Shown here: positions 8,951 through 45,940 of the stretch, in pieces
Position numbering within the stretch: position 1 is the first letter of the stretch
Layout of the letters: the number at the start of each line of letters is the position of its first letter
Assembly (NCBI GenBank): GCA_051531975.1
Contig: JAOPTT010000006.1
Coordinates: forward strand, 656-64,655
Origin: Spirochaetaceae bacterium
GTDB lineage: Bacteria > Spirochaetota > Spirochaetia > DSM-2461
DNA: 64,000 bases
Direction of reading: 5' to 3'
Position numbers and translations under genes: made by a program
The notes under the pieces: model-generated
Seen by the model: only the letters and a program-made list of their open reading frames with translations
What the model was told of the DNA's origin: nothing
Databases searched by the model: none

Positions 8951-8959
8951 TCATTTCTC

Positions 8960-13302: not shown

Positions 13303-13357
13303 GCAACTTTTTAAGCATTATTGCAACATATATTTCAACTATAGCAAACAAAGTAGC
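13303..13357 (+). promoter_or_regulatory. Candidate upstream activator array (three GCA-N8-TGC-like boxes)
   Basis: GCAACTTTTTAAGC(13303), GCAACATATATTTC(13323), GCAAACAAAGTAGC(13344); last GC is 42 bp before the -24 GG. Confidence 0.55.
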
Positions 13358-13395
13358 ATGTAGAAGTAATTTCTCATTAATCTTAGCAAAAATTA

Positions 13396-13412
13396 CTGGC
13401 ATAGATATTGCA
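13396..13412 (+). promoter_or_regulatory. sigma54 (-24/-12) promoter
   Basis: CTGGCATAGATATTGCA, GG-N10-GC. Confidence 0.78.
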
Positions 13413-13454
13413 TATAATTTTTAAGCTTTGAATTATAGAAAAAGGAAACATATA

Positions 13455-14120
13455 ATGTTGAATAAAACGTATAATGATAAATGGCAAAATATTGTAAATA
13501 TGATGGCTGAGCTCATAGATGTTCCTGCTGCATTGATAATGAAAATTGATGAAGATAATATAAAAGTATGTATTTCTAGTGAAACAGTCGGTAATCCCTA
13601 TAAAGTTAATGATAAAAATAATTTGCATAACTCAGGTCTGTATGGTGAAACAGTTATAAATTCCAATAATGAGTTATTAGTACCTGATGCTAGAAAATCA
13701 CTATTATGGAAAAAAAATCCTGAAATCAAACTAAATATGTACTCCTACTTAGGCTACCCAATCCATAATCCAGATAATACAATTTTTGGAACTTTGTGTG
13801 TTTTGGATAATAAAGAAAATTTTTATTCAGTTATATTTAGAAAAATTCTAATAAACCTTAGAGAAATAATTGAAGATGACTTAAAAAAGATTTACTTAAA
13901 TGGTGATTTAGGTACGAAACATAAAAATGTTACAGAATATGTCGAAGGAACTAATGATTTCAGAAATATATTAAGAATTTGTGCTAATTGTAAAAATGTT
14001 AAAAATAAGAATGGTGATTGGATAGAAATTGAAGAATATATTGAAAGTAATACTGATACTGATATTACACATAGTTTATGCAAAAAATGTGTTAATAAAT
14101 TATATGGAGATTTGATATAA
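13455..14120 (+). CDS. GAF domain protein with C-terminal CxxC…HxxCxxC zinc-ribbon-like domain
   Basis: YLGYPI..FGTLCVLD GAF end; ICANCK…THSLCKKC; ATG 13455 after AAGGA preferred over TTG 13428. Confidence 0.78.
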   Translation: MLNKTYNDKWQNIVNMMAELIDVPAALIMKIDEDNIKVCISSETVGNPYKVNDKNNLHNSGLYGETVINSNNELLVPDARKSLLWKKNPEIKLNMYSYLGYPIHNPDNTIFGTLCVLDNKENFYSVIFRKILINLREIIEDDLKKIYLNGDLGTKHKNVTEYVEGTNDFRNILRICANCKNVKNKNGDWIEIEEYIESNTDTDITHSLCKKCVNKLYGDLI

Positions 14121-14482
14121 TGAAAAAATGCAGTTTAATATTATTAGTTGATGATGATCTTATGACTCTTAAAGTAGGGGAAGTATTACTTCAGGATCTT
14201 GGATATACGGTAATTACTGTTGAAAATGGATTGGAAGCTTTAAAAATACTAAAAAATAGAAATATTGATTTAATTATATTAGATATGAATATGCCAAAAT
14301 TAAATGGACTAGAAACCCTCATAAAGATTAAGGAATTAGATAGTTCAAATAAAGTTATTATATGTTCAGGATATATCAGTTCTAAAAGTGAATTACTTCT
14401 ATATAAAAATGGTATCTTAGAAATTCTTAAAAAGCCATATAAAATAGACGATTTAGAAAGAGTCCTTTTAAAATTCATATAA
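14120..14482 (+). CDS. Single-domain response regulator
   Basis: VDDD, ILDMNMP, CSG, KKPY. Confidence 0.88.
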   Translation: MKKCSLILLVDDDLMTLKVGEVLLQDLGYTVITVENGLEALKILKNRNIDLIILDMNMPKLNGLETLIKIKELDSSNKVIICSGYISSKSELLLYKNGILEILKKPYKIDDLERVLLKFI

Positions 14483-14569
14483 TATAGAAATAATTTGAGT
14501 ATTTGTATGTCTTTCAATAATACCTATTTTTATGAAAATCTTCATCATAATAGAAATATCTTAATTAGC

Positions 14570-16018
14570 TTATGTTTTAGATTTATTTAATCTTCTATTT
14601 AAAGCTTGTCTACTAATCCCTAATAGTTCAGAAGCATGTAATTGATTATTATTTGACCTTTTCATCGCTTCTTTTATTAGCAGTGTTTCTGCCTGATTAA
14701 AAGTTGGAAAAGGCGTTTTTATTATAAGATTGTCGCAATCAACTTCATTAAATTCAGTGGAATGTGATTCTATTATATCGTTTGATTTGATAAATTTTTC
14801 TATCTTTGGATTCTTTTTTGTTACTCTTAATTTTGAAATAATATGTTCTAGGAGAAGTTCTGAATTTTGTGAAAGAGTTACAGCGTTAAACGCAATATTT
14901 TTTATTTCTCTTACATTCCCTGGAAAATCATAAGCCTTTAAAGATTTATAAACATCTAGAGGTATATTATCTATAACTTTATTTAAATCGTTGCAAGCCA
15001 TTTTAACAAAATGGTTAAATAGTGTGAATATATCATCAGGTCTTTCTCGTAACGGTGGTATTTCAAAACCATGGGTTTCTAATCGGTAGTACAAATCCTT
15101 TCTGAAAAGCCCCTCATCGATTAATTTATGCAGATCTCTATGAGTAGCAAATATAATTTTTGCATTTGTTTTAAGGAGTTTATCTGAACCTACTTGTCTA
15201 TATTCATTTTCCTGAATTATCCTTAATAATATATTCTGTAATTCCAAGCTTAAATCACCTATTTCATCTAAAAAAAGTGTACCATTTTCAGCAGATTTTA
15301 TTAATCCATTTCTATTTAATGCTGCACCAGTAAAGGCACCTTTTACATGACCACATAAGGCATCTTTAAAGTTTTCATTGTTATAACTAGAAACATCCAT
15401 TGCAATGAAAGATCCTGTACAGTTACTCATATCGTGTATTGATTTAGCAAATAATTCTTTTCCGACCCCTGTTTCTCCTGTAATTAATACGGGATATGTA
15501 GATTCTGAGATTGCAGCAATATAGTGAAAAAGTTTGGTAATTTTTTTATTTGTCGTAATTATTGATGAAAAGACTTCTGGTGTTTTTAATTTCTCTTCAA
15601 AAAACTCTTTTTTAAGATTATTAAATGATGTGCTTAATTCAGCAAAATCGAGGGCTTTAGTTATAGATGTAGAGGCTCTTTCCAAATTAATTGGTTTTAC
15701 AAGGTAATCAGAAGCACCACTCTTCATAACCTTTATTACAGATTCAATATCATTAGAACCTGTCATGATGATTACTGGAATTTGAGGATTTTCCTCATTT
15801 ACTATTGTTAGAATTTTTAAACCACTAGTATCAGGTAAATGCAAATCTAAAAGAATTAAATCTACACTGTTCTCTTTTATATAATTCAGTGCAGGTTTAC
15901 CATTATAGAATTTTATAATTTTAGTATAACCTTCAGAATTTAGGAACATAATCATGCTATTGATAATCATTTCATCATCATCAACAATCAAGATAGTTTT
16001 GTCAGTTTTATTTAGCAT
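14570..16018 (-). CDS. sigma54-dependent enhancer-binding response regulator (REC-AAA+-Fis HTH)
   Basis: REC LLDLHLP; Walker A GETGVGKE; GHVKGAFTGA; Walker B LFLDEIGD; FPGNVRE; LLGISRQALNRRL. Confidence 0.92.
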   Translation of the reverse strand: MLNKTDKTILIVDDDEMIINSMIMFLNSEGYTKIIKFYNGKPALNYIKENSVDLILLDLHLPDTSGLKILTIVNEENPQIPVIIMTGSNDIESVIKVMKSGASDYLVKPINLERASTSITKALDFAELSTSFNNLKKEFFEEKLKTPEVFSSIITTNKKITKLFHYIAAISESTYPVLITGETGVGKELFAKSIHDMSNCTGSFIAMDVSSYNNENFKDALCGHVKGAFTGAALNRNGLIKSAENGTLFLDEIGDLSLELQNILLRIIQENEYRQVGSDKLLKTNAKIIFATHRDLHKLIDEGLFRKDLYYRLETHGFEIPPLRERPDDIFTLFNHFVKMACNDLNKVIDNIPLDVYKSLKAYDFPGNVREIKNIAFNAVTLSQNSELLLEHIISKLRVTKKNPKIEKFIKSNDIIESHSTEFNEVDCDNLIIKTPFPTFNQAETLLIKEAMKRSNNNQLHASELLGISRQALNRRLNKSKT

Positions 16019-16270
16019 TTTTATTAATCCTTTGGTTAGTGAATACTATTAATATAATTAGAAATAATCTCAACTATATAACAATTTAATAATAATAAAT
16101 TTTTACATTAAAAATAGAATTTATTGAAGTATAACACAATTTTCAAAGAAAGTGATAATATAGATATTGCATGATGTATAATGATTGCAACTTCACTAAA
16201 ACTGTAAATGTTTTTTACAATATAAAACTGTTCTTTCGAATAATTTAAAAAGTTAAAATAAGGAAATAGA

Positions 16271-17545
16271 ATGAAAAAAAATCAAGAGTTGATCGATGGA
16301 TATATCATGATAGTTGATGACAATTCGATAAATGTAGATCAATTGAAAAAAATATTAGGAGTAGAGAAGTATGAAGTCAAGGCATTTGCAAATAGTAAAG
16401 TCGCTTTAAATACTGCTCTATCAAGTTCTCCGAGTTTAATACTTGTAGATATTGATATGCCAGAAATGGATGGATTTGAGTTTTGCCGTTTATTTAAAGA
16501 ATGTCCTGATAAATCTGAAGTCCCGATAATATTTATACGTTCACATGCTGATACCACAGATATAATAAATATATTTGAGGCTGGTGCAGCCGATTATATA
16601 ACTAAACCATTCCAGAACACAGAAGTTTTAGCAAGAATTAGTACCCATCTAGAACTTTATATCACTAAAATTCATCTTGATGAGTTAGTTCAAAAAAGTT
16701 CTTATGGTACTATTTATAATGTTACTGAAAAATATCAGATGCAAGAAATAATGATAAAGAATGAAAAAATTATTTCAATGGGTAGATTGGCGACTGGTAT
16801 GGCTCATGAAATTAGAAATCCTTTATCTGCAATATCACAGTTCTTCCAGATGATGGCAAGAAAACTAAATTATGATCTGGATAATTCTACAAATATTAAA
16901 GCCGCAGAGGACGCAGGTACAACAATTGAATCAATAAAACATTTTATAACTTCCATAAATATAACTCCAATGTTTGAATCAATAGATATATGCATAAACC
17001 GAATTGTAAAAATTATTGATAATATGCATAAATTTTCCCAGAAAGGTATAGGAATAAAAATATTAACAAACTTACCAATACTAATTAATAACACTTTAGA
17101 TATAATACTTTTGGGAATTTCCTCTAATCAGGAGTTTAGTTATAAACATATTAATATTGTTAAGCAATATGATAATAATATTCCAGATATTATGTGTTTC
17201 GATTCAAAAATACAACAGGTCATTCTCAATATTTTACATAATGGTGCAGATATTATGATGAACAATGGAATAGAGAATCCTCAATTTACTATAAGAATTA
17301 AGTATACTGAGGGGGTACAAATGATATCTATTGAAATTGAAGATAATGGGCCGGGAATATCTGATGAAATTCGTAGTCGTATCTTTGAACCATTTTTTAC
17401 TACTAAGCCTGATAGTGAAGGAACAGGTTTGGGATTAAGTATATCAAACTTTATTATCACTAAAGACCACGGAGGTGAATTACTTGTTGAATCTCAGATG
17501 GGAAAAGGTGCTAAATTCATAATTAATTTACCATTAATTTTATAA
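16271..17545 (+). CDS. Hybrid REC-histidine kinase
   Basis: N-terminal REC (LVDIDMP); H-box GMAHEIRNPL; EDNGPGI, FEPFFTTK, GTGLGL. Confidence 0.9.
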   Translation: MKKNQELIDGYIMIVDDNSINVDQLKKILGVEKYEVKAFANSKVALNTALSSSPSLILVDIDMPEMDGFEFCRLFKECPDKSEVPIIFIRSHADTTDIINIFEAGAADYITKPFQNTEVLARISTHLELYITKIHLDELVQKSSYGTIYNVTEKYQMQEIMIKNEKIISMGRLATGMAHEIRNPLSAISQFFQMMARKLNYDLDNSTNIKAAEDAGTTIESIKHFITSINITPMFESIDICINRIVKIIDNMHKFSQKGIGIKILTNLPILINNTLDIILLGISSNQEFSYKHINIVKQYDNNIPDIMCFDSKIQQVILNILHNGADIMMNNGIENPQFTIRIKYTEGVQMISIEIEDNGPGISDEIRSRIFEPFFTTKPDSEGTGLGLSISNFIITKDHGGELLVESQMGKGAKFIINLPLIL

Positions 17546-17667
17546 ATTAAAATATAGATACTTTTCTTTTTTATGTGTTATTAAATCTTAGTGTCACCAA
17601 TTTAATAGAAAATTAAATTTTGCATTTTGCGCAAATCAATTTCTGTTTTTCCTTTTACTAAAATAAC

Positions 17668-17684
17668 TTGGCATAATTATTGCA
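17668..17684 (+). promoter_or_regulatory. sigma54 (-24/-12) promoter
   Basis: TTGGCATAATTATTGCA, GG-N10-GC. Confidence 0.75.
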
Positions 17685-17718
17685 AAACATTTTATATAAA
17701 AATATTATTGGGGAAAAG

Positions 17719-19581
17719 ATGAAATTAAGAACAAAACTATATAGTGGTTTTTCTATATTGACAATTTTGGCATCGGTTGTAGGTATCACAGCATTAGTTA
17801 TTGCCAGTCAGGTCAAAGCTCAAAGTTCTCTATCGGCAGAGTATATGACTTCTACGATTCAGATTAACAATATGTATGAATCCCATTTGAAATGGAAAGC
17901 CAGTGTTGAAAAAACATTTTTATTTAATCTAGATCAAATAAATGTGCAATTTGATGGACATAAATGTGGATTTGGTACCTACTTTTACGGAAAACCTTTT
18001 GAAGAATTAAAAACCTTAACACCCAAAACAGCCATGATTTTAGCAGAAGCGGAAGAGGCACATTTGGATCTACACAGCTCTGTTCAGACAATAAATGATA
18101 GTTGGGTTCCAATTCATTCAGGTCTGTTGGCAAAACTTCAATTAAGCCTTATACAACACAAACAGTGGTCATTAAATATCTTAACATCTATTGCTACAAA
18201 TAGTAAAATCACAGTTCAGGAAGATCCGACAAAATGTGACTTTGGTAAATTCCTAGGAAGCACTGAAAGTCTAAATGTGGAAAAAATCTGGCCACTTTAC
18301 AGTGAAAAAATATCAGAAATTAAAAATGAACATGAAAAACTACATAGTTTGGTAGATGTAATAAAAATTAGCGATGATACAAATGAACAGGTTAATATCT
18401 TTGAATATCAGCTTTTACCTATTTTATCTGATGTATCACAAAAATTTACTTTTGTAATAAATGAAGAACTAAAACTTGAGAATATTCAGGGTGAAGCAAT
18501 CATCTTTTTTAAAAATAAGACAACTATATATCTCACAAAAGTTCTTGATAAACTAAATAAAGCCACAATACAGCTTTCAAATGAAAGAAAAAAATCTAAT
18601 ATACTATTAGATGAAATACTAACTAAACAAACTTTTATAGTAATTATTGTATTATTATTAATTATTATACTAGCAGTTTTATTAAGTCTAATAATTACAA
18701 GTAGTATATTAAAACAACTTGGTGTTGATCCGGAAGAAATTTTGAAAATATCAAATTTAATAACTAATGGAGAGCTAAATATCAGTTTTGATGAAACAAA
18801 GCCTCTGGTAGGTGTGCATAAATCACTCTTTAGTATGGTTGATAAACTTAAGGATGTGGTATCAGGAATATTATCTAGTTCAGATACTGTTTCATCAGGT
18901 AGTAGTCAATTAAGTGATACAGCAAATCAGATATCCCAGGGTGCGTCTGAACAGGCATCTTCTATTGAAGAGATTTCATCCTCCATGGAAGAGATGGTTT
19001 CAAATATAAGAAAAAATTCTGATAATTCAATACAAACAGAGAAGATAGCATTAAAAACATCGACAGATGCTGAGGCAGGTAGCTTAGCTGTTATAGAAAC
19101 AGTCAATGCTATGCAAAATATCGCTATTAAAATTAACATAATTGAAGAGATCGCTAGAAATACAAATCTTCTTGCATTAAATGCCTCAATAGAAGCTGCA
19201 AGAGCCGGAGAGTATGGTAAGGGATTCGCTGTTGTTGCATCTGAAGTTGGAAAACTTGCAGAACGTAGCCAGATAGCAGCGACTGAAATTAATGAGCTTG
19301 CAGTGAGTAGTGTAAATACTGCTGTAGTCGCCGGAGAAACAATAACTGCAATGTTACCAGATATTCAAAATACTGGGGAACTTGTACAGGAGATAAATGC
19401 TTCATGCAATGAACAAAACGCAGGTTCTGAACAGATTAAACAAGCCATTGTACAGTTAGATAAAGTTATACAGCAAAGTGCAGCGGTTTCTGAGGAATCA
19501 TCTTCTATGGCGGAAGAACTTAGCAGTCAGGCTAAAGTTCTAAAAGATATAATTAGTTTTTTTAAAATGACAACAATATAA
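17719..19581 (+). CDS. MCP with two CZB (zinc-binding) domains between its TM helices
   Basis: ATG 17719 after GGGGA (TTG 17680 lies inside the promoter); HLKW…CGFG…HLDLH and HKQW…CDFG…HEKLH; MCP tip. Confidence 0.9.
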
Positions 19582-19709
19582 AAATATAGTCCAAAGAAAA
19601 GTTTCCTAGTAAAATAATGTGGATCTATCGATTAAAGTCATTAATACTATAAAAATACTAAAATAAAATATCAAGTTTTGCATAAATTTATCATTAATAT
19701 CAATAGTTG

Positions 19710-19783
19710 TATTGTTGAATCTATAGCATCTTTTGTTGCATCTACAGCATATTTTGTTGCATCTACAGCATGTTTTGTTGCAT
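19710..19783 (+). repeat. 21-bp tandem repeat (TTTTGTTGCATCTACAGCATN, ~3.5 copies) forming a candidate upstream activator array
   Basis: Units at 19710, 19731, 19752 and 19773 (partial); boxes GCATCTTTTGTTGC, GCATATTTTGTTGC, GCATGTTTTGTTGC. Confidence 0.85.
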
Positions 19784-19832
19784 GTTTTGTAGAAAATCAC
19801 ATATTTTTTTAAATATTGAACAGAGTAAAAAC

Positions 19833-19849
19833 TTGGCACAGCTTTTGCA
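19833..19849 (+). promoter_or_regulatory. sigma54 (-24/-12) promoter
   Basis: TTGGCACAGCTTTTGCA, near-consensus TGGCAC-N5-TTGCA. Confidence 0.88.
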
Positions 19850-19878
19850 AATAATAAGTGTAATTATAGGAGATACTT

Positions 19879-21651
19879 ATGAAATTAAGAACAATATTTA
19901 ACTGGATAATGGTAATTGCTATCATATTAACCGCAAGTTATCTGTATGTAAACGTACAAAGAAATAACATAGTTAATAGCATAGATTTAAAACATAGTGA
20001 AAGATATTTAGCATTTTCAATTGCTGATGAATTTCGACATACTTCTATGAATTTAACTCGTTTTGCCAGAACTTACTCAGCTACAGGTGAACAAAAGTAT
20101 TGGGATGATTATTGGTATATCGTTAATTGGAGGGGTGGAAATGTCAAAAGACCTGAAAATCTTCATAAAGAATTATATCCAGGGGAGAAAATACCTCAAT
20201 TAGATATTATGAAAATAATTGGTTTTACTGATAGTGAGTTTGAGATGTTAAATGAAATTGGAAACATGTCTAATGATTTAATTAATCTTGAGACCCAAGC
20301 AATGGATTCAATAAAATCTAATGAAATAGTTGATGGTCCTGAAACTCCAAAAGATGGTGAAAATGTTTCTGAATTCGCTATAAGAATATTATATAATAAT
20401 ATATATCATAAAGAAGTATATAAAATTTGGGGTACAGTGGAAGAATTTGTAGAAATTCTTGATGAAAGAATATTTCTTGAGTTAGAGACGCTGGAAAATC
20501 AGGAGAATATCATAAATATAGTATCTATTATTATATTATTTGTAATTGTCCTAGGTATAATAGCATTAATAGTATTTCTAATTAGAACAGTATTAAACAG
20601 GCATATTGGTGGTGAACCTTCTGAGGCTGTTGATATTGCACAGAGGATATCAAAAGGTTATTTAGATATAGATTTGAACTCACATAGTAATATTGGTTTA
20701 ATAGGAGCCATGCTTGTTATGGTGGAAAACCTTAGAAATATTGTGACAGAGGTAAGGGGTAGTTCAAAGAATGTAGCATCTGGTAGTGGTCAACTTAGCG
20801 ATACAGCAAATCTAATGTCCCAAGGAGCATCGGAGCAGGCATCTTCCATAGAAGAGATCTCATCATCAATGGAAGAGATGGTATCAAACATTAAACGTAA
20901 TGCAGACAATTCAGCACAAACTGAAAAGATAGCTAGAAAATCTGCAATAGATGCTGAAAATGGTGGGGATGCAGTTAATAAAACCGTTGATGCAATGCGT
21001 CAAATTGCTTCTAAAATAAATATAATTGAAGAGATCGCACGTAATACAAACCTATTAGCACTTAATGCCTCAATTGAAGCTGCTAGAGCTGGAGAGTATG
21101 GTAAAGGATTTGCTGTAGTAGCTTCAGAAGTTGGGAAATTAGCAGAGCGTAGTCAGTTGGCGGCTTCTGAAATAAATGAATTGGCAAGTGGTAGTGTAAA
21201 AGTAGCCGAAAATGCTGGGACTACTATTATGGCCATGATTCCAGATATTCAGCACACAGCTGAGTTAATACAGGAGATCAGTGCTTCAAGTAATGAACAA
21301 AATGCAGGTGCAGAACAGATCAATCAAGCTATTATGCAGTTAGATAAAATTATACAGCAAAATGCAGCAGTATCTGAAGAATCATCTTCAATGGCAGAAG
21401 AATTAAGTAGTCAATCGGAATTATTAAAAGATGTTATTAGCTTTTTCAAAATGTCTGATTCAGATGATAATATGAATCAGAAGAAATCCATTTCTAAAAT
21501 TTCACCCCAAATTTTAAAACAGAAAAATAATAATACTATGCAAAAGCCTAAACATTTGAATGTTAAAACAGGCTTGGATATTTCATTAGATGGAGATGAA
21601 CATTATACAGAGCATAACGATCTTTTAGACAAAGATTATGAGCAATTTTAG
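19879..21651 (+). CDS. Methyl-accepting chemotaxis protein, pentapeptide DYEQF
   Basis: Two TM helices, helical sensor [21 protein letters not shown] tip. Confidence 0.93.
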
Positions 21652-21660
21652 GAGATATAA

Positions 21661-22170
21661 ATGAGTGATGTTAGCGTATTATTAATTAACCAGTATTTAT
21701 CTTTTACATTAGGCAAAGAAAAATATGGAATAAATATAACAAATGCAAGAGAGGTTCTTGAAGCTACTGAACTGACAAAAGTTCCAAGGATGCCAGAGTT
21801 TATGTGTGGTGTAATCAACTTAAGAGGTAGTGTAGTTCCTGTTATAGATCTTAAGACAAAATTTAAGATGGGTAATACCGATGATAATGAAAAAAATAAT
21901 ATTATCGTTACAGAAATTGATGACCTAGATGATGGAGATGGAAAACTTACAATAGGTATTTATACAGATTCTGTACAAAAAGTCCTTACAATAGAGCCTG
22001 ATGATATAGAGTCTGCACCTAAAATAGGAATTCAGATAAATACAGAATTTATTCATGGTATGGGAAAAGTTAACGATGAGTTTGTCATACTATTAAATAT
22101 TAATAAGATATTAAATAGCAACGATCTTAGTATTATTAATAAAAATAATGATGATGCTGAAGAAGGCTAA
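21661..22170 (+). CDS. cheW: CheW
   Basis: VPRMPEFMCGVINLRGSVVPVIDL. Confidence 0.93.
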   Translation: MSDVSVLLINQYLSFTLGKEKYGINITNAREVLEATELTKVPRMPEFMCGVINLRGSVVPVIDLKTKFKMGNTDDNEKNNIIVTEIDDLDDGDGKLTIGIYTDSVQKVLTIEPDDIESAPKIGIQINTEFIHGMGKVNDEFVILLNINKILNSNDLSIINKNNDDAEEG

Positions 22171-22253
22171 GTATCAAATACAAAAATAGAAGATGTTTTA
22201 TACAACCTATTTATCTGGGTAGTTAATATTTTACTTAAAATTTCAAAACTCTC

Positions 22254-22303
22254 AATTTATTTACACCATATTTGAATTTATATAAATATGGTGTAAATAA
22301 ATT
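22254..22303. repeat. Perfect 20-bp inverted repeat with 10-nt loop (terminator or operator)
   Basis: AATTTATTTACACCATATTT (22254-22273) / AAATATGGTGTAAATAAATT (22284-22303). Confidence 0.8.
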
Positions 22304-22338
22304 TATGGTAAAGGAATTATTTTATAAATTGAGGAAAA

Positions 22339-24210: not shown

Positions 24211-24223
24211 AAAATTAATTTGA

Positions 24224-24279
24224 GCACATTTCTTTGCTTTAACTGCAACATGTTTTGCAGTTAAAGCAAATTTAGTTGC
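24224..24279 (+). promoter_or_regulatory. Candidate upstream activator array (three boxes, 21-bp period), also forming a 16-bp perfect inverted repeat at 24233-24270
   Basis: GCACATTTCTTTGC(24224), GCAACATGTTTTGC(24245), GCAAATTTAGTTGC(24266); last GC is 42 bp before the -24 GG. Confidence 0.7.
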
Positions 24280-24317
24280 ATTTAAATTATTCTAAACCAT
24301 ATATTTTTGACTAATAG

Positions 24318-24334
24318 TTGGCATCAATATTGCA
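24318..24334 (+). promoter_or_regulatory. sigma54 (-24/-12) promoter of che cluster 1
   Basis: TTGGCATCAATATTGCA, GG-N10-GC. Confidence 0.82.
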
Positions 24335-24366
24335 TTCAATAGTTTATTGGTATATAGGAGTTATAA

Positions 24367-26376
24367 ATGAAATTAAAGTCAAAGATTATAATGGGTTTTA
24401 GCACAGTTATTATTATGCTGCTAATCGTAAGCATAGTTGCATTTGTAGCTTTAAGTGGAGCATCTCAAGGTTTCACAGAGTATAGGGGCCTAGCTAGGGA
24501 TACAAACCTTGCAGGAAGACTACAGGCTAATATGTTAATGGTTAGAATGAACGTAAAAGACTATATAATTACTGGAAGTCAAAAAGATCATGACCAGTAT
24601 ACAGATTATGTAGAAAAAATGAATGGATTTTTAGAAGAAGCTCAAGATGAAATACAAAAACCTGAACGAGCAGCCTTAGTAGACGATGTTGATGAAACAG
24701 TAGCATTATATGAATCTTCTTTTGATGAAGTAGTAGACTATAAGTCAGAAAGAGAGGAAATTGTAAATAATAATTTAAATATTAATGGTCCTACAATGGA
24801 AAATAAGCTATCAGAGATTATGGATTCAGCTAATGATGATGGAGATGTTGTAGTTACATATGCAGCCAGCGTTGCAACAAGGCATCTACTTCTTGCTAGA
24901 CTCTATGTTATTAAATATTTAGATAATAACAAAAAAGAGTATGCCGATAGAGTGGATTCTGAAATGAAAATACTTGATGAATATGTTGTTATTTTAAGAA
25001 ATGAGATAGATGATAATCATAGATTAAATCTACTTGTAGAAATGGATGAAATACACTCTGTTTACTGGGATGGATTTAAAAGATTAGTAACTGTAATAAC
25101 AAATAGAAATGATATTATAGATAATCAGTTAGATATCCATGGACCTGAAATTGCTGGTTGGGTTGAAGAAGTAAAGCTTTCAATCAAAGCTGATCAAGAT
25201 ACCTTAGGACCAAAGCTTCAAAGCAGTAATGCATTTTTCATTACTATTGTAGTTGTTGTTTCAATCATAGCTATATTAATTGGAATATTATTAGCACTGT
25301 TTATTACTACTAGTGTTTTAAAACAGTTAGGAGTAGATCCCGCAGAGATTGCAGAAATAGCAACTTCAATTGGAAAAGGTAATTTAAAAATTAACTTTGA
25401 TACAGGAAGAACCCTTGTAGGAGTACATCAATCTTTACATTCTATGGTACAAAAACTACAAGAGGTAGTGCAAAATGTACGGAATAGCTCAAATAATGTA
25501 GCATCTGGTAGTGGTCAACTTAGTGATACAGCAAATCAGATGTCCCAAGGAGCATCGGAACAGGCATCTTCAATCGAAGAGATCTCATCATCTATGGAAG
25601 AGATGGTATCAAATATTAAGCGTAATGCAGACAATTCAGCACAAACTGAAAAAATAGCAAGAAAATCCGCTATAGATGCTGAGAATGGTGGGGATGCTGT
25701 TAATAAAACCGTTGATGCAATGCGTCAAATTGCATCCAAAATAAATATAATTGAAGAGATCGCACGTAATACAAACCTATTAGCACTTAATGCCTCAATA
25801 GAAGCTGCTAGAGCCGGAGAGTACGGTAAAGGATTTGCTGTAGTAGCTTCAGAAGTTGGAAAATTAGCAGAGCGTAGTCAGTTAGCGGCTTCTGAAATAA
25901 ATGAATTAGCAAGTGGAAGTGTTAAGATTGCAGAAGATGCAGGAACTACAATCATGGCTATGATTCCGGATATTCAGCATACCGCAGAGTTAATTCAGGA
26001 AATAAGTGCTTCTAGTAATGAACAAAATTCAGGTGCGGAACAGATAAATCAAGCGATTATGCAGTTAGATAAAGTAATACAACAAAATGCAGCAGTATCT
26101 GAAGAATCATCTTCAATGGCTGAAGAGTTAAGTGGGCAATCTGAATTATTAAAAGAAGTAATAAGTTTCTTCAAAATGTCAAATTTAGATGAAGCCAAGT
26201 ATCAGAATAAAGCTATCTCAGGTATAAATTCTTCAAAATTAAAACCTAAACATAATGATACTGTGCAAAAGAAAATGTCTTTGGATATCAATAAAGGTTT
26301 GGATATTTCCTTAGATGGAGATGAACATTATACAGAGCATAACGATCTTTTAGATAAAGATTATGAGCAATTTTAG
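24367..26376 (+). CDS. MCP with large helical (HBM-like) sensor, pentapeptide DYEQF
   Basis: Two TM helices flanking ~255 aa helical domain; MCP tip. Confidence 0.92.
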
Positions 26377-26385
26377 GAGATATAA

Positions 26386-26895
26386 GTGAGTGATGTCAGC
26401 GAATTATTAATTAATCAGTATTTATCTTTTACATTAGGAAAAGAAAAATATGGAATAAATATAACAAATGCCAGAGAGGTTCTTGAAGCTACTGAACTTA
26501 CAAAAGTTCCAAGAATGCCAGAGTTTATGTGTGGTGTAATTAACTTAAGAGGTAGTGTAGTTCCAGTTATAGATCTTAAGTCCAAATTTAAAATGGGCAA
26601 TACAGGTGACAATGAAAAAAATAATATCATTGTTACCGAAATAGATGAACTTGATGGTGGAGGTGAGAAACTTACTATAGGTATTTACACAGATTCTGTT
26701 CAAAAAGTTCTGACTATTGAACCTGATGATATAGAAGCCGCACCTAAAATAGGTATTCAAATAAATACAGAATTTATTCACGGTATGGGAAAAGTTAACG
26801 ATGAGTTTGTAATCCTGTTAAATATTAATAAGATATTAAATAGTAACGATCTAAATGTTATTAATAATCATGATGATGAAATAGACGAGGAATAA
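26386..26895 (+). CDS. cheW: CheW
   Basis: Near-identical to the 21661 CheW; GTG start. Confidence 0.93.
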   Translation: MSDVSELLINQYLSFTLGKEKYGINITNAREVLEATELTKVPRMPEFMCGVINLRGSVVPVIDLKSKFKMGNTGDNEKNNIIVTEIDELDGGGEKLTIGIYTDSVQKVLTIEPDDIEAAPKIGIQINTEFIHGMGKVNDEFVILLNINKILNSNDLNVINNHDDEIDEE

Positions 26896-26896
26896 G

Positions 26897-27220
26897 ATGC
26901 CAAAAAAAACTGATAATGTTGTTGTAATAACAGATGACTTAATAATTAATCATGTTGATGAAATTAGAGAACTTTTAATAAAAACTTTAAAAAAACAAAA
27001 AAAATTAGAAGTTGTTCTCTCTTCTATTAATAGAATTGATATCTCTGGATTACAACTACTTGTCAGTTTAAGCAATGAAGCCTTTTTAGCAAAAAAAGAA
27101 ATCCTTTATTCTGGTGTATTTAAGGATAGCTTTTTGTTTGATATCAATAAAGTTTCTTTTGCTCAAAATATTTTGACAAATGCAGAGGACTTACAAAATT
27201 TTATAAAGGATGTAGTTTAG
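26897..27220 (+). CDS. STAS domain protein
   Basis: LSSINRIDISGLQLL STAS motif; directly upstream of cheA. Confidence 0.78.
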   Translation: MPKKTDNVVVITDDLIINHVDEIRELLIKTLKKQKKLEVVLSSINRIDISGLQLLVSLSNEAFLAKKEILYSGVFKDSFLFDINKVSFAQNILTNAEDLQNFIKDVV

Positions 27221-27230
27221 AAGGTAAAAT

Positions 27231-29318
27231 ATGGATGAAGTAAATTTTATAAATATATTTAAAGAAGAAGCATTAGAACTCTTAGGGAATTTAGAAGATT
27301 TTCTTCTTGAATTAGAGTCAAATCCAGATGATGAAGAGTTAATATCTGCAGTGTTTAGAGCAATGCATACTGTTAAGGGTTCTGCAGGTATGGTTGGTTT
27401 AAATAATATCTCTACATTTACACATGAAGTTGAATCAATTCTTGAATCAATAAGATCTGGTAAGGCTAAGGTTAATAAGGATTTTATAGATTATACATTA
27501 AAATCTAGGGATATTATATTAACAATGATCAATGATTCAGGATATATATTTCCAGATCAAGATTCATTCTTCTTAGAATTTAAAAAGTCTTTAAATATTA
27601 AGGATGAAGATGAATTAGATAATAATAACAAAGAACCTCAACTAGATAATCAAGAACCAAAAATATATAAAATTACATTTAAACCAGAACCACGAATATT
27701 TTTCTCAGGAACCAACCCTGTAGCATTAGTACATGAAGTTCTTGAATTTGGAGAGGGTATAGTAATTCCCCATTACAAAAAAATTCCATCAATATCAGAA
27801 ATACATACTGAAGAGTGTTATGTTTATTGGGATATCTATGTTTCAACATTAAAAAATATTAATAAAATACAGGAAGTTTTTATATTTATTGATGATCAAT
27901 CTGAATTAATAATTGAAGAATGGAATTTTGATAATGATGAAGAAATACCGGAAAAACTTGGAAATATTTTAGTAAAAAGTGGTAGTATAAATCAGAAAGA
28001 ATTAGACATTGCATTAAAAGCACAATATAAACTTGGAGAAATTCTTGTTAACGAGAGTATGTTATCCGAACATGAAGTTAAAAATGCTTTAAAAACGCAA
28101 AATTTTATAAATAAGAGCAAATCGAATAAGATAGATTTATTAAAGGGTGTTACAGATAATATTAAAGTAAGTTCTAATAAACTTGATAGTTTAATTGATC
28201 TTGTTGGTGAAATTGTAACTATATATGCACAGATGTTACAGATGAGTCACGAATCTAGTGATACAAAACTAATAGCGATTATTGAAAGATTTGGTCTCTT
28301 AACCGAAGAGTTAAGGGATAATTCCATGAGTATGAGAATGTTGCCTATAGGTTCTACATTTTCTAGATTTAGACGTCTTGTCAGAGATTTATCAGGAGAA
28401 TTAGGGAAAAAGATAGAGTTGATAACAGAAGGTGCTGATACAGAACTTGATAAAAATGTAATAGAGCAATTACATGATCCCCTTGTTCATATTATAAGAA
28501 ATTGTATCGACCATGGTATAGAACACCCGGATTTAAGGGTCAAAAACGGTAAAAAGGAAACAGGAACAATAAAGTTGTCTGCAATACATGCAGGAGCATC
28601 TGTACAGATTATAATTGAAGATGATGGTGGTGGTCTAAGTAGAGACAAAATATTAAAAAAAGCTATTTCAAAAGGACTTGTTAAGAGTGATATTGATTAT
28701 TCAGATGAAGAGCTCTTTAACCTTATTTTTTCTCCAGGATTTTCTACTGCTACGAGTATAACTAATGTCTCAGGTAGAGGTGTTGGGCTTGATGTTGTAA
28801 AAAAACAGATAGAACAACTTAAAGGTCATGTCTCTATTACAAGTGAGGAAGGGGTGTATACAAAAATAACCCTGGTATTACCTATAACTCTAGCTATTAT
28901 TGAAGGACTGTTAGTAAAAATTGCTGGAGACTCATATGTTATACCACTAAGCAGTGTTGAAGCCTGTGTTGAATTAAAAAAGGAAAATAAAGATTTTAAT
29001 TCTGGAAAACATGTTATAACTTTTAGGGATAAACTTGTACCGTATATAGATTTAAGAACATTTTTTGATGTTAAAAGTGAGCGTGAATCTATTGAACAAA
29101 TAGTTATTGTTAATTCAAACAGTTCACAGATAGGTCTATTGGTTGATACTGTAGTCGGTGGTAATCAGACTGTTATTAAACCACTTGGTTCAATGTATCA
29201 ACATATAAAAGAGATATCCGGAGCTGCAATTTTAGGTAATGGTTCTGTAGCATTGGTATTTGATATAGAACAACTTGTTAAGGTTGTTCAAGATTTAGAG
29301 GAATGTTATGACATATGA
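27231..29318 (+). CDS. cheA: Chemotaxis histidine kinase CheA
   Basis: Hpt FRAMHTVKG; LIDLVGE; HIIRNCIDHGIE; DDGGG; VSGRGVGLDVV; C-terminal CheW-like domain. Confidence 0.96.
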   Translation: MDEVNFINIFKEEALELLGNLEDFLLELESNPDDEELISAVFRAMHTVKGSAGMVGLNNISTFTHEVESILESIRSGKAKVNKDFIDYTLKSRDIILTMINDSGYIFPDQDSFFLEFKKSLNIKDEDELDNNNKEPQLDNQEPKIYKITFKPEPRIFFSGTNPVALVHEVLEFGEGIVIPHYKKIPSISEIHTEECYVYWDIYVSTLKNINKIQEVFIFIDDQSELIIEEWNFDNDEEIPEKLGNILVKSGSINQKELDIALKAQYKLGEILVNESMLSEHEVKNALKTQNFINKSKSNKIDLLKGVTDNIKVSSNKLDSLIDLVGEIVTIYAQMLQMSHESSDTKLIAIIERFGLLTEELRDNSMSMRMLPIGSTFSRFRRLVRDLSGELGKKIELITEGADTELDKNVIEQLHDPLVHIIRNCIDHGIEHPDLRVKNGKKETGTIKLSAIHAGASVQIIIEDDGGGLSRDKILKKAISKGLVKSDIDYSDEELFNLIFSPGFSTATSITNVSGRGVGLDVVKKQIEQLKGHVSITSEEGVYTKITLVLPITLAIIEGLLVKIAGDSYVIPLSSVEACVELKKENKDFNSGKHVITFRDKLVPYIDLRTFFDVKSERESIEQIVIVNSNSSQIGLLVDTVVGGNQTVIKPLGSMYQHIKEISGAAILGNGSVALVFDIEQLVKVVQDLEECYDI

Positions 29319-30174
29319 TCTTCTAGAAAAAAATATGTCTAATAAAACATTTCAACTTTTCAGAGATTTTATTCAGACACATATTGGAATAACTATAGCT
29401 GACTCTAAAAAAATTATGGTTGAATCTAGGCTGTTAAAAAGATTAAAGGCACTAAACTATACCAACTATAGTGAATATGCTGACTATTTTTTTAGTCCAA
29501 AAGGGCAAATGAATGAATTAGCCAGGTTCATTGAGTGTATAACAACAAATAAAACAGATTTTTTTAGAGAAGTTGAACATTTTAACTTCCTTTCAAACCA
29601 TGTATTACCAGAATTAATAGAAATGAAGTTACATGGAGAAATAAGATTGTGGTCAGGAGCATCATCAACTGGTGAAGAAGCATATACAATGGCTATGTTC
29701 ATGGAAGAGTTCCTTGAAAAACATCCTAGTAATAAATATAAAATTCTAGCTACTGATATTTCAGAAGAAGTGCTAGATAAGGGTCAAAAAGCAATTTATT
29801 CAATTAATGATTGTTATCCAATTCCTATAAATTTCAAAAAAAAATATTGCCTGATGAGTAGAAACCGTGATATTCCCACAATTAGAATTAACAAATATCT
29901 AAGAAAAAAAGTTCTATTTAGACAAATTAATTTAACAGCGGATTCATATATGATAAAAAAACAATATCATGTAATATTTTTGAGAAATGTGATGATCTAT
30001 TTTAATAAGGAGATACAAAGTAAAATCCTTAATAATTTGTATAAACACCTGCACCCTGAAGGATATCTTTTTTTAGGGCATTCTGAAAATTTACCTAATA
30101 CTTCAATTCCTTTTAAAAGGGTGGGCCCCTCAATATATGTAAAAAAGGAGAAAATAATTAATGGACAAAATTAA
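29308..30174 (+). CDS. cheR: CheR methyltransferase
   Basis: [41 protein letters not shown]. Confidence 0.95.
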
Positions 30175-31219
30175 TATAATGATTATTGATGATTCTGCAG
30201 TAGTTCGAGGAGTTTTAACAAAACTAATATCCTCTGAAAAGGATATTAATCTACTGTGTACAGCAGCAGATCCTTATATTGCAGTAAAAAAACTTAGAGA
30301 GATGGTCCCAGATGTAATTATTCTTGATATAGAAATGCCAAGAATGGATGGATTAACTTTTTTAAAAAAACTTATGAGTCAACATCCCATTCCTGTAATT
30401 ATATGCAGTAGTAAAACTGAGGCTGGTTCTGCAAATGTATTAAATGCACTGGAATTCGGAGCTGTGGATATAATTAAAAAACCCCAGATAGGGACAAAAC
30501 AATTTTTAGAAGAGTCTAGAGATTTAATTTGTGATGCTATTAGGGCTGCAAGCCAGACAAATATTAATAAAATAGTTAAGCCTATAGAAGTAACCAAAAA
30601 ATTAAACGCTGATGTTATAATTGCAAAACCTACAACTTTGAACTCTATAGACACAACAGAACAAATAATTGTTGTAGGTGCTTCTACTGGAGGTACAGTA
30701 GCTTTAAAAATATTCCTTGAATCTCTACCATTAGATTCACCAGGCGTTGTTATTGTACAACACATGCCTGAAAACTTTACTGCTGCATTTGCAGAAAGAT
30801 TAAATGAGTCTTGTACCATACAAGTCAAAGAAGCTAAAAACAATGACTCGGTATTAAGAGGTTCTGCTCTAATTGCTCCAGGGAACAAACATACTCTCTT
30901 AAAGAGAAGTGGAAGCAGGTATTATGTTGAAATAGTAGGTGGTCCTTTAGTCTCTAGGCATAGACCCTCTGTTGATGTTTTATTTAGATCTACAGCAAGA
31001 TACGCTGGACAAAATGCCATTGGAGTTATTATGACTGGTATGGGGGATGATGGTGCTCAGGGTTTGCTAGAGATGAAAACAGCTGGATCTTATACTATTG
31101 CCCAGGATGAAAAAAGTTGTGTTGTATTTGGAATGCCTAAAGAAGCAATAAAAAAAGATGCCCACTGTGCTATTGTTCAGCTAAACAATATTTCAAATCA
31201 CATTCTAAGTAAAATATAA
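30161..31219 (+). CDS. cheB: CheB methylesterase (REC-CheB)
   Basis: [29 protein letters not shown]. Confidence 0.96.
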
Positions 31220-31247
31220 TTATATAAAGTAGTGAAGGTTAGTAATA

Positions 31248-32819
31248 ATGAATCTTGAAATTAAAAAATCAACAAACTCAAATATTATTCAAGGTTATCC
31301 ATTGGAAACTGTAAAAAAGCTTGAAATAGGTATAGAAAATAGTCCAGTTTCAATAATTATAACTGATAAAAATGGCTTAATTGAATATGTAAATAGAAAA
31401 TTTTGTACTATAACTGAGTATTGCAAAGAAGAAGTAATAGGAAAAAATCCCAATATCTTAAAAAGTGATTATCATGATGATGAATTTTATAAGTATATGT
31501 GGAAATTAATAAAAAGCGGAAAAGAGTGGAAAGGTATAATAAAAAATAGAAAAAAAAGAGGAGATCTGTTTTGGGAAGAAGCTAATATTACCCCAATTTT
31601 TGGCAGTGATAATATCATAAGTAATTATATATGTACAAAACATGATATATCATTAGAAGTAAAACAAGAACAGGAAATCAAAACTTTAAAGGAAGTTTTA
31701 AAACATAAAAATAAAATAGATGCAGTAGGTCAATTAGCTGGTGTAATTGCACATGATTTTAATAATATATTAAGTGGAATAATAAATTTAGCAGAATTAC
31801 TTAAAATAGGAACAGACAGTTTTAACCAAAAAGAAATTGATTATATAGATCTTATTTTACAATCTGCAGATGACGCAACAAATTTGACACAAATACTGGA
31901 ATCATTAAATAATAGGCTAGATATTAAATTAAAAGAATTAGACATATCAGAATTCTTAGATAATTTTATGGATAGTTTACGTTATACCTTAGAAGATAAA
32001 TATCATATAGAATATATTAATAAATATAGTAGTATTTTTATTAATGGGAATTGTTCTGAATTATTAACTTCTTTAAGTAATATTATTGAAAATGCTACTA
32101 GCTCCATGAAAAATGGTGGTGAAATAACAATAGAATTGGATTTAATAGAATTAGATAAAAAAGAATGCTTAAATTTTATAAATTCTGTCTCTCCTGGTAG
32201 ATATTGTTCTATCTCAATTAGTGATAATGGCCATGGTATTTCTTTAGAAAAAATGCAAAATATTTTTAATCCATTTTTTAAAATAAACTCAAATAAAAAA
32301 TTATCTGGATTAGGTTTATATACAGTAAATGGCTGTTTAAAAGATCATAATGGTGCTGTAAATATAAAAAGTATTTTAGATAAAGGAACTACTGTTACCT
32401 TATACTTTCCAATAACTGATAATAGTGGAAACACCAAAATAGCCCCCCCTAACTATTTATGTAAAACAATCCTATTAGTAGATGATGAAAAAATTAATAG
32501 AATTACGGGGAAAGATTTATTAGAACATATTGGATTTAAAGTTTTGTTAGCGTCTGATGGTGATGAGGCTGTAAAAATATATAGTAAAAAACATTTAAGT
32601 ATTGATTTAGTTTTAATTGATATGGTAATGCCAAAAATGAATGGTTTTGATGCATTTAATGCCATGAAAAATATTGATCATAAATGCAAAGGTATAATTT
32701 TATCAGGATATTTAGATTATGTAAAAATACAAGATTTAATCGATAGCGGTATCTTAGCCATTTTAAGTAAACCTTACAGTATTAATGAACTTGAGCAAGT
32801 AATTAATGAAAATATATAA
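31248..32819 (+). CDS. Cytoplasmic PAS-histidine kinase-REC hybrid
   Basis: PAS (ITDKNGLIEYVN), IAHDFNNIL, DNGHGI, GLGL, C-terminal REC IDMVMP. Confidence 0.88.
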   Translation: MNLEIKKSTNSNIIQGYPLETVKKLEIGIENSPVSIIITDKNGLIEYVNRKFCTITEYCKEEVIGKNPNILKSDYHDDEFYKYMWKLIKSGKEWKGIIKNRKKRGDLFWEEANITPIFGSDNIISNYICTKHDISLEVKQEQEIKTLKEVLKHKNKIDAVGQLAGVIAHDFNNILSGIINLAELLKIGTDSFNQKEIDYIDLILQSADDATNLTQILESLNNRLDIKLKELDISEFLDNFMDSLRYTLEDKYHIEYINKYSSIFINGNCSELLTSLSNIIENATSSMKNGGEITIELDLIELDKKECLNFINSVSPGRYCSISISDNGHGISLEKMQNIFNPFFKINSNKKLSGLGLYTVNGCLKDHNGAVNIKSILDKGTTVTLYFPITDNSGNTKIAPPNYLCKTILLVDDEKINRITGKDLLEHIGFKVLLASDGDEAVKIYSKKHLSIDLVLIDMVMPKMNGFDAFNAMKNIDHKCKGIILSGYLDYVKIQDLIDSGILAILSKPYSINELEQVINENI

Positions 32820-32932
32820 ATGAAAAAAATTGTTATATAAATTGGAAAGTTTATAGGATTAATGAAGGAATAATTAAGTGAGTTTAAGTTGGAATTACCC
32901 CAATGGCATATTTTTAATAAAGGATAAACTTT

Positions 32933-33517
32933 ATGAATAAAAAGTTTTATAGAAAGTCAAATATTAAAACAATTTATTCTGGAGAATACTATGTTACTAA
33001 GAAAAATGAAATAATATCAACTGTACTTGGTTCATGTATCTCCGTATGTTTATACGATAAAGTTAATAATATTTGTGGTATAAATCATTTTATGTTGCCC
33101 AAAAATTCCATTATAAATTTTATTGAAAAACAATATGAATTTAAAAGTGAGTTTTTGAGCAGTAATTCATTACGTTATGGAATAAATTCTATGGAAATAC
33201 TAATAAATAAAATATTAGCTATGGGTGGCGAGAAAAAATACATAACAGCAAAAGTATTTGGTGGGGGAAATGTTATAATACATGATCAAAATAAAAAAAC
33301 TATAGGAGAACAAAATATAGACTTCATATTAGGCTTTTTAAAAGCTGAAAATATTGAAATCTTAAACAAGAATATTGGAGGTTGTATAGGTCGTAAACTT
33401 CTATATAATACTAAAAATAATTCTGTTTATATTAAAAAAATTCCTATCATGAATATAGAGAAAATAGAAGCAAACCCAATCAATATAGAGGCTGCAGGAA
33501 GTATTACAATATTTTAG
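32933..33517 (+). CDS. cheD: Chemoreceptor glutamine deamidase CheD
   Basis: TVLGSCISVCL, GINHFMLP, RYG, AKVFGGG. Confidence 0.93.
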   Translation: MNKKFYRKSNIKTIYSGEYYVTKKNEIISTVLGSCISVCLYDKVNNICGINHFMLPKNSIINFIEKQYEFKSEFLSSNSLRYGINSMEILINKILAMGGEKKYITAKVFGGGNVIIHDQNKKTIGEQNIDFILGFLKAENIEILNKNIGGCIGRKLLYNTKNNSVYIKKIPIMNIEKIEANPINIEAAGSITIF

Positions 33518-33540
33518 TGATCTCTAACGATAATATCTTT

Positions 33541-33596
33541 GCAATAATAGTTGCGTGAATATTCTAATATGTTGCTAATAAAGCAATAATTGTTGC
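33541..33596 (+). promoter_or_regulatory. Candidate upstream activator array (three boxes, 21-bp period)
   Basis: GCAATAATAGTTGC(33541), TTCTAATATGTTGC(33562), GCAATAATTGTTGC(33583); last GC is 42 bp before the -24 GG. Confidence 0.68.
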
Positions 33597-33634
33597 ACTT
33601 CATCAATTATTTCACCTATTTATATAATCAGAAC

Positions 33635-33651
33635 TTGGCACTAAAAATGCA
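33635..33651 (+). promoter_or_regulatory. sigma54 (-24/-12) promoter
   Basis: TTGGCACTAAAAATGCA, GG-N10-GC. Confidence 0.8.
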
Positions 33652-33702: not shown

Positions 33703-34068
33703 ATGAAAACTATATTTGCAGTTGACGATTCCGTGACACTAAGAGCTTCTCTCAATTATACACTTACAAAAGCAGGATATGATGTAAAATTAGCCGAGGA
33801 TGGCGTAATAGCATTGGATAAGATATCTAATTATACAGATAAAATTGATTGTTTTCTGTTTGATATCAACATGCCAAATATGGATGGTATAACACTTATT
33901 AAAAAAGTTCGAGAAATTTCAAGGTTTAAATTTACACCAATTTTGTTTCTAACAACGGAAAGTCAGGAATCAAAGAAAATGGAAGGTAAGGCCGCTGGTG
34001 CTTCTGGTTGGATTATTAAGCCCTTTGATCCATTAACATTAATTTCAACGTTAAAAAAATTCGATTAA
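33703..34068 (+). CDS. cheY: CheY-like response regulator
   Basis: VDDS, FDINMPNMDG, FTPILFLTTE, GWIIKPF. Confidence 0.88.
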   Translation: MKTIFAVDDSVTLRASLNYTLTKAGYDVKLAEDGVIALDKISNYTDKIDCFLFDINMPNMDGITLIKKVREISRFKFTPILFLTTESQESKKMEGKAAGASGWIIKPFDPLTLISTLKKFD

Positions 34069-34117
34069 GGTATTTTTAAATATATCGAAAGAATATTATG
34101 GGTGAGAAGGAATATAT

Positions 34118-35374: not shown

Positions 35375-35424
35375 ATTTGAATTAAATATATAATTCAAAA
35401 AAGTTTATAAAAGGACATAATAAT

Positions 35425-42927: not shown

Positions 42928-43290
42928 ATGAAATCGATATTTGCAGTTGATGATAGTTCTACTGTAAGGGCTATGCTGGGGAATGTGTTAATAAAAGCTG
43001 GGTATTCTCTACATTTTGCTGAGGATGGAGTTATAGCTTTAGATATGATTAATAAAAGTTCATATAAAATAGATCTTTTTATATTTGATGTTAACATGCC
43101 TAATATGGATGGTATCGCTCTAATTAAAGATGTGAGAAAAATATCTAAATTTAAATATACTCCAGTTTTGTTTTTAACATCTGAGTCCCAATTAGTTAAT
43201 GAAGGAAAGCTAGCAGGTGCTACTGGTTGGATTGTGAAGCCTATAAATGATGATTTGTTGTTAAGTGTAATTAAAAGATTTATTAAATGA
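42928..43290 (+). CDS. cheY: CheY-like response regulator
   Basis: VDDS, FDVNMPNMDG, GWIVKP. Confidence 0.83.
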   Translation: MKSIFAVDDSSTVRAMLGNVLIKAGYSLHFAEDGVIALDMINKSSYKIDLFIFDVNMPNMDGIALIKDVRKISKFKYTPVLFLTSESQLVNEGKLAGATGWIVKPINDDLLLSVIKRFIK

Positions 43291-43335
43291 AAATTATATA
43301 TTTGTTAAATTAAAATTAATATATTAGGGGATTTT

Positions 43336-45090: not shown

Positions 45091-45099
45091 GAGAATCTT

Positions 45100-45934: not shown

Positions 45935-45940
45935 AGGTCG

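Follow-up and report, generated by a model that had tools for sequence, protein, structure and literature searches.

Arrays of phased GCA-N8-TGC boxes as predicted sigma54 upstream activator sequences in an accessory chemosensory cluster of a spirochaete

Several described systems place more than one palindromic upstream activator sequence (UAS) before a sigma54 promoter served by a bacterial enhancer-binding protein (bEBP), and we summarize them here from excerpts of the cited reports. At norVW of E. coli, NorR relies on three essential consecutive palindromic sites, for which a model of three dimers giving one hexamer has already been published; the GT-N7-AC sites of the 66-bp NorR oligonucleotide start, by our hand count, 21 and 24 bp apart (PMC2831303). 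Among clostridial bEBP groups, 32 of 39 have several UAS, with triples spaced by 18 and 21 bp for AorR and by 28 and 23 bp for BldR, and the predicted OrdR site has a GCA-N8-TGC core (PMC6615313), while AdhR uses three sites that all contribute (PMC7017808). In Desulfovibrio vulgaris, the autoregulated receiver-type bEBP DVU1419 recognizes a GCA-N6-TGC palindrome validated by electrophoretic mobility shift assay (PMC3333781, PMC4641369). With regard to chemosensory genes, sigma54-controlled che clusters are known in Geobacter, the activator site not being named in the passages on record (PMC2577667), and the che genes of Borrelia are under Rrp2-RpoN-RpoS control (PMC10703414). Here, we analyse a window of 64,000 nucleotides from a Spirochaetaceae bacterium (GCA_051531975.1, contig JAOPTT010000006.1), in which four arrays of GCA-N8-TGC boxes precede sigma54 sites of an accessory chemosensory cluster. 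Judging from sequence, these arrays very probably act as UAS of the TGCAAC-N4-GTTGCA type, bound by the adjacent REC-AAA-Fis activator (14570..16018, minus strand) and driving four promoters.

Five GG-N10-GC sites, all on the forward strand, all intergenic and each upstream of a gene, match the -24/-12 consensus of sigma54: 13397..13412 (GG at 13398) before a GAF gene and a REC gene, 17669..17684 (GG at 17670) before a methyl-accepting chemotaxis protein (MCP) with a CZB domain, 19834..19849 (GG at 19835) before MCP-cheW, 24319..24334 (GG at 24320) before the core che operon, and 33636..33651 (GG at 33637) before cheY. They are the five promoters claimed in a preliminary description of this DNA, whose positions lie two bases ahead of each GG, and the genome encodes rpoN (on C13). 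Four of the five are preceded by triples of boxes, to which no strand is assigned: array A (13303..13357; boxes at 13303, 13323 and 13344), array C (19726..19781; boxes at 19726, 19747 and 19768), array D (24224..24279; boxes at 24224, 24245 and 24266) and array E (33541..33596; boxes at 33541, 33562 and 33583). All 12 boxes are found where that description had placed them, and the geometry it reported is equally confirmed: the steps are 21 and 21 bp in each array except A (20 and 21), and the G of the last box lies 42, 55, 42 and 42 bp, in the order of the arrays, from the first G of the promoter. Counted from the predicted start, the boxes of arrays A, D and E are centred at about -114 (-113.5 in A), -93.5 and -72.5, those of array C at -127.5, -106.5 and -85.5. 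The 12-bp-offset duplication noticed near 19833 is also present, as a repeat at 19780; it gives rise to a weak box (4.2 bits) that overlaps the array and lies 41 bp from the GG.

Two claims of the preliminary description stand in part. Its consensus understates the variation among the boxes: of box 33562 the right half alone is present (TTC...TGC), and in the degenerate array A every box carries one or two mismatches. In the independent matrix derived from distant relatives (see below), the boxes score 6.3, 15.4 and 9.3 bits in array A, less than 5, 16.6 and 12.1 in array D, and 15.9, less than 5 and 16.4 in array E, the boxes below 5 bits being 24224 and 33562. Similarly, its local regulon of five promoters is retained for the four array promoters and given up for the promoter it placed at 17668 (GG at 17670), where a scan with the independent matrix shows no array and which is probably outside the activator regulon. 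Upstream of that promoter, at 17619-17640, there is a different, imperfect palindrome, containing TTTGCGCAAA. The linkers between arrays and promoters are 78-85% AT; scanned with the consensus for integration host factor (IHF), no IHF site stands out in them (best match 6-7 of 9 positions), and the genome has one HU/IHF-family gene.

The arrays stand apart from the rest of the AT-rich, 5.46-Mb genome. When the window boxes were scored as a matrix of triples with 20-22-bp steps over the whole genome, the four occupied ranks one to four with 38-53 bits, the next best match reaching 21. Upon leaving one out, each omitted array was still within the top four genome-wide, with a thin margin for the array at 33541 (26.8 versus 23.6). 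A scan of 494 kb of intergenic DNA by a mismatch rule returned five arrays, three in the window and two elsewhere, and missed the one at 33541 because of its half box. Such arrays are not equally common in random intergenic DNA, as six Markov resamples gave a mean of 0 under the same rule. In addition, spacers and linkers show identities of 0.30-0.49 between arrays, against a null mean of 0.33 and a 95th percentile of 0.46, with one of six array pairs at p=0.03 (the D and E linkers, which are slightly alike). Since the spacers are at about background identity while the geometry is kept, selection appears to act on the boxes and their spacing. Array C consists of an almost perfect 21-bp tandem repeat, with an internal identity of 0.67-0.92 at non-core positions, and could be a recent tandem duplication.

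Motif discovery, suggested in the preliminary description for the five upstream regions, was carried out here beside distant relatives of the activator and yielded a matching box from a set that holds no window DNA. An alignment search with the helix-turn-helix (HTH) of the activator returned at least 283 related stretches; 80 loci were taken among the matches listed, at 36 of which the activator is followed within 520 bp by a sigma54-like site. Once 8 sites of weaker consensus and 3 near-duplicates were dropped, 25 promoters remained, with titles from Spirochaetota, Desulfobacterota, Nitrospirota, Bacteroidetes, Myxococcota, Aminicenantes, Victivallaceae and Cellvibrionaceae. Gibbs sampling on these promoters produced TGCAAC-N4-GTTGCA (14.5 bits) in a palindromic run of width 18 and also in a free run of width 16, as compared with 7.9 bits for a shuffled control at width 16. 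At 7 bits or more, the resulting matrix matches 4 of the 27 sigma54 sites that lie in intergenic DNA of this genome, which are precisely the four array promoters. Of the held-out near-duplicates, it matches all three. Among 12 sister-clade loci with other helices, five have a strong sigma54 site in the DNA examined and one has a box above 9 bits.

The activator itself, a bEBP with receiver, AAA+ and Fis-type HTH domains, is the likely box binder. It matches PF00072, PF00158, PF25601 and PF02954 above cut-off, carries the receiver residues D13/D14 and D58, and has intact Walker A, GAFTGA, Walker B and R-finger motifs, together with the recognition helix LGISRQALNRR. In place of ESELFGH it has KDALCGH, a variant of the DTLFGH of its subfamily. 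Among the 25 matches listed, no named bEBP equivalog (NtrC, AtoC, LuxO, NorR, ZraR, PrdR) passed its cut-off, the best score being that of NtrC (325 versus 559), and a structure search found no solved structure for the subfamily, generic NtrC-family proteins being the best matches. The genome encodes 14 bEBPs, that is, 13 besides this one, which falls outside the group of the others in a tree of 28 rows, none dropped. As to its kinase, the REC-HisKA-HATPase gene at 16271..17545 (forward strand) is divergent from the activator and a candidate partner, and the upstream region shared by the two genes has neither box nor sigma54 site; a search through best matches to the orthologues' kinases singled out no single kinase.

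The box travels with the activator. Among 40 genomes, the closest relatives of the activator are encoded in G005, G010, G014 and G018 (50-52% identity), and in a search of 400 genomes of the class at E 1e-112 six passed, namely those four and two at 44%. The four orthologues and the window activator form one clade (support 100/99), and the helix LGISRQALN[KR]R is common to all five; a further activator, in L131, carries a sequence variant of this clade. Across the four orthologue genomes, the box is found before sigma54 sites at three kinds of gene, namely a receiver gene, a group-2 sigma paralogue and an MCP. The box-bearing receiver gene is directly upstream of the activator in three of them, the G014 contig ending after the receiver gene; the box precedes the sigma paralogue in all four and an MCP-cheW unit in two, and the MCP of G018 has its best match in the window genome in the MCP at 19879 (58%). 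Pairs of boxes match in 8 of 41 genomes, and we set aside the matches in G026 and G030 and the second ones in G014 and G018, all one shared stretch with a 22-bp step and no promoter, as well as that of G025, which has no promoter either. A loose pattern of box plus sigma54 site occurs in 17 of 41 genomes, with many matches within coding DNA, and was counted only where promoter context is present.

Conversely, two congeners, G001 (96% complete) and G003 (71% complete), have no close orthologue of the activator. Their homologous MCP-cheW-(STAS)-cheA-cheR-cheB operon lacks both a sigma54 site and any box scoring more than 3.9 bits within 200 bp. The paralogous che cluster of the window itself, at 42928-51788, has neither a sigma54 site nor a box. 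Thus, the palindrome goes with the activator before sigma54 sites and is missing without it. The candidacy of the 14570-16018 protein as the binder, put forward in the preliminary description, is supported by the orthologue boxes, the de novo motif and this pattern of presence and absence.

On these grounds we propose a model in which a local kinase would phosphorylate the receiver of the activator, whose dimers would bind the boxes directly, oligomerise there and then remodel the sigma54 holoenzyme through GAFTGA. Four units, that is, GAF-REC, MCP-cheW, the core che operon, and cheY with its downstream genes, would be induced together in a sigma54-dependent manner. By analogy with NorR and AdhR, the most likely role of several adjacent boxes would be to raise occupancy and aid ring assembly. 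These steps follow established bEBP biology.

A number of observations weigh against this model. The activator's own gene has no box and no sigma54 site upstream, unlike the orthologues; the G003 control is imperfect, given the 71% completeness of that genome and a CheA nearer to the second paralogue of the window; and the palindromic Gibbs run of width 16 came out off-register. Moreover, the matching of 23 of the 25 promoters by the matrix is a training-set figure, and one of the eight held-out promoters of weaker consensus reaches 9 bits. The 13 further bEBPs of the genome are alternative binders, and GCA-N8-TGC is not exclusive to the activator subfamily, since the unrelated clostridial OrdR has the same predicted core. 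The last two points lend themselves to a reading, improbable to our judgement, in which another regulator occupies the boxes, either one of those 13 bEBPs or a LysR-like protein on the inter-box TGC-N7-GCA dyad, and the neighbouring activator acts elsewhere. The dyad does match the pattern T-N11-A, the LysR motif, yet the gap between boxes ranges across genomes from 4 bp to 7 bp and beyond, whereas the box itself is constant. Besides, the box was found de novo beside HTH relatives of the activator and follows its presence and absence, and the ISRQAL helix is absent from all 13 other bEBPs. Far less credible still is a neutral origin of the arrays, as tandem duplications or by copying of one ancestral promoter, with no function at present: the repeat structure of array C and the slight likeness of the D and E linkers would fit it, but arrays A, D and E are at background identity beyond the box ends, each of the four arrays keeps a fixed distance to an intact sigma54 site, and distant lineages conserve the motif.

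Recognition of the boxes by the adjacent activator, which we favour, also admits a stricter version that keeps the same binder and is a refinement of it, in which all three same-face boxes are needed, as for one hexamer, and the 21-bp step and the 42-bp distance are mechanistically fixed. We regard this version as possible, if doubtful. The step is kept in four arrays and the distance in three though the spacers have diverged, NorR requires all three of its sites (PMC2831303), and the loss of any single AdhR site severely impairs AdhR promoters (PMC7017808). Against this, a 21-bp triple is missing from all 11 promoters with boxes that were inspected in the four orthologue genomes: these carry pairs, spaced by 20-21 or 30-32 bp and ending 43-55 bp from the GG, with a weak third box solely at the G018 MCP promoter. 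The strict triple pattern is found in 0 of 40 relatives, arrays D and E each contain one weak box, and array C is possibly a recent duplication. In distant relatives, the boxes are placed at about 165 and about 80 bp from the GG, an offset of some 85 bp, and the distal box often has a weak partner 18 bp on (z 3.8, 15 promoters); offsets of 21 and 42 bp are at background in these promoters. The preliminary description's idea of three same-face boxes, taken as the defining design, is not supported by the comparison with orthologues, which use two boxes or other spacings. The three-site arrangement of an obligatory enhancer of the NorR type is not conserved, and the exact 21-bp triple is the version of this genome, with no requirement for it in the family.

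A metagenome scan for two boxes plus a sigma54 site gave 11 loci, one of them informative. At L212:6970-7092, three GCA-N8-TGC boxes lie 81, 62 and 41 bp before the GG behind an unrelated activator of the OrdR type, nearly the same layout as that of the window; the locus is an ornithine catabolic operon, with ord, ortB and oraE above cut-off. We set aside three simple repeats, three loci within or overlapping open reading frames with no activator seen, three near-identical copies of one high-GC promoter with several GCA-N8-TGC-like boxes near a sigma54 site (L202, L205, L209) and one more site, the last four having no activator in the DNA examined. The scan turned up no additional 21-bp triple accompanied by this activator. 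The recurrence of the compact layout in L212 keeps the stricter version alive, at modest odds. It also invites a bolder and rather unlikely proposal, that the layout (about -72, -93 and -114, the last box four helical turns from -24) is a selected 'short-reach' enhancer design that arose four times here and independently in L212. In such a design, a DNA-templated hexamer would contact sigma54 across 40 bp of bent AT-rich DNA with no IHF loop, and the arrangement would have arisen as the newly gained activator captured the accessory chemosensory system. If true, this would turn the four arrays into natural variants of a single geometry, on which the templating of hexamers and the role of phasing could be tested directly.

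The predicted targets belong to an accessory chemosensory cluster at 13428-39568, defined by Pfam matches on the window proteins: GAF, REC, the bEBP, a REC-kinase, four MCPs, two cheW, STAS, cheA, cheR, cheB, a PAS kinase, cheD, cheY, a short MCP-like protein and two more kinases. On the forward strand, array A is followed by the GAF-domain gene and the stand-alone receiver gene (13428..14482) and array C by MCP and cheW (19879..22170). Behind array D comes a predicted operon of MCP, cheW, STAS, cheA, cheR, cheB, PAS-kinase-REC and cheD (24367..33517), in which cheD is separated from the preceding gene by a 114-bp gap, and behind array E another of cheY, the short MCP-like gene and two sensor kinases (33703..39568), the ends of both being predicted from gene spacing. 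With STAS, cheD and the short MCP-like gene, features of chemosensory class F8, the cluster is by its gene content a candidate for that class, a name that does not occur in the Borrelia passages (PMC10703414). The cluster at 42928-51788 (cheY, MCP, cheW, STAS-like, cheA, cheR, cheB, cheY, short MCP-like) is a duplicate under different control, its CheA being 66% identical to that of the accessory cluster. The che operon is predicted to be under sigma54/bEBP control here and not in two congeners or in its own paralogous copy, a rewiring of the regulon in which the predicted lineage-specific capture of the accessory cluster by the activator is one of the new pieces, beside the predicted site of the subfamily.

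Other features of the window and genome deserve mention. Residues 242-290 of the accessory CheA (27231-29318) match an MshE-related c-di-GMP-binding motif (41.7 bits versus an NCBIfam cut-off of 38) and include two KLGxxL repeats, of which there are none in the paralogous CheA at 45941 and one in a CheA on C12. An extra MCP-cheW pair at 8444-11029 (minus strand) is a close relative of the cluster MCPs and has no sigma54 site upstream, and a distinct operon of cheA, cheW, a gene we take to be cheX from its N-terminal sequence, and a cheY-like gene is found elsewhere in the genome. This separate operon, together with the clade variant in the Spirochaetaceae activator of L131, points to a free-living spirochaete as the likely owner of the genome. 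At C3:274000-292000 and C16:92000-97000, sigma54 sites lie ahead of genes that, by their N-terminal sequences, we presume to be nifH-, nifE- and nifV-like, and two bEBPs appear, on the same presumption, NifA-like; the genome is likely nitrogen-fixing. In the orthologue genomes, the group-2 (RpoS/RpoD-like) sigma targets are at L022:4135-5085, L017:15049-15999, L179:3619-4545 and L180:2411-3367, and the predicted cascade from bEBP through sigma54 to sigma recalls Borrelia. The best match to these sigma factors in the window genome, C16:33797, has no sigma54 site, and another group-2 sigma gene, C18:4404-5293, has a strong sigma54 site upstream without a box; a Borrelia-like Rrp2-RpoS cascade was accordingly rejected for this genome. 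In G030 (L051), a gene resembling the C18 sigma has a sigma54 site with one box. These loci make an RpoN-to-RpoS link a candidate in free-living relatives.

Compared with the described systems, the window arrays resemble NorR in having three palindromic sites in a row before a sigma54 promoter. The two differ in that NorR has a GAF/NO sensor, an 11-bp core and an IHF site, whereas the window combines a receiver-domain activator with a 14-bp core and chemosensory targets; the window bEBP scores 240 bits with the NorR equivalog against a cut-off of 476 (NCBIfam). The clostridial regulons of AdhR, AorR, BldR and OrdR share a local bEBP with multiple UAS, although most of those UAS, in the excerpts consulted, lie 100-250 bp from the promoter, as against 40-95 bp in the window, and they serve metabolic targets. 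By family matches, the OrdR-type protein of L212 has PAS-type rather than receiver input, and its helix is ISRQNL. The listed HTH of DVU1419 is by eye the most similar of 36 D. vulgaris ones (17 of 34 residues), and its palindrome, often paired, has GCA...TGC ends, a kinship that counts in favour of the proposed binder; it differs by an N6 core instead of N8, pairs 23-38 bp apart and targets that, as listed, are not chemosensory. Geobacter and Borrelia, as far as their excerpts go, share a sigma54 pathway upstream of accessory chemosensory genes, but control in Borrelia passes through RpoS whereas in the window it is predicted to be direct, and Rrp2 itself is outside the tree. A full-text search, judged by titles and the openings of abstracts, found no earlier description of TGCAAC-N4-GTTGCA for this subfamily, although supplements and figure logos may hold a closer motif, and the D. 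vulgaris site table contains no such group among its rows listed (PMC4641369). The analysis provides a predicted site for a widespread bEBP subfamily (DTLFGH...GAFTGA, helix ISRQALN). As the mechanism is textbook, the value of the findings lies in the annotation and in a neat test set rather than in a new principle. Taken together, the system of the window is likely an ordinary sigma54 enhancer with its cognate bEBP and a well-supported regulon, well precedented among the systems described above.

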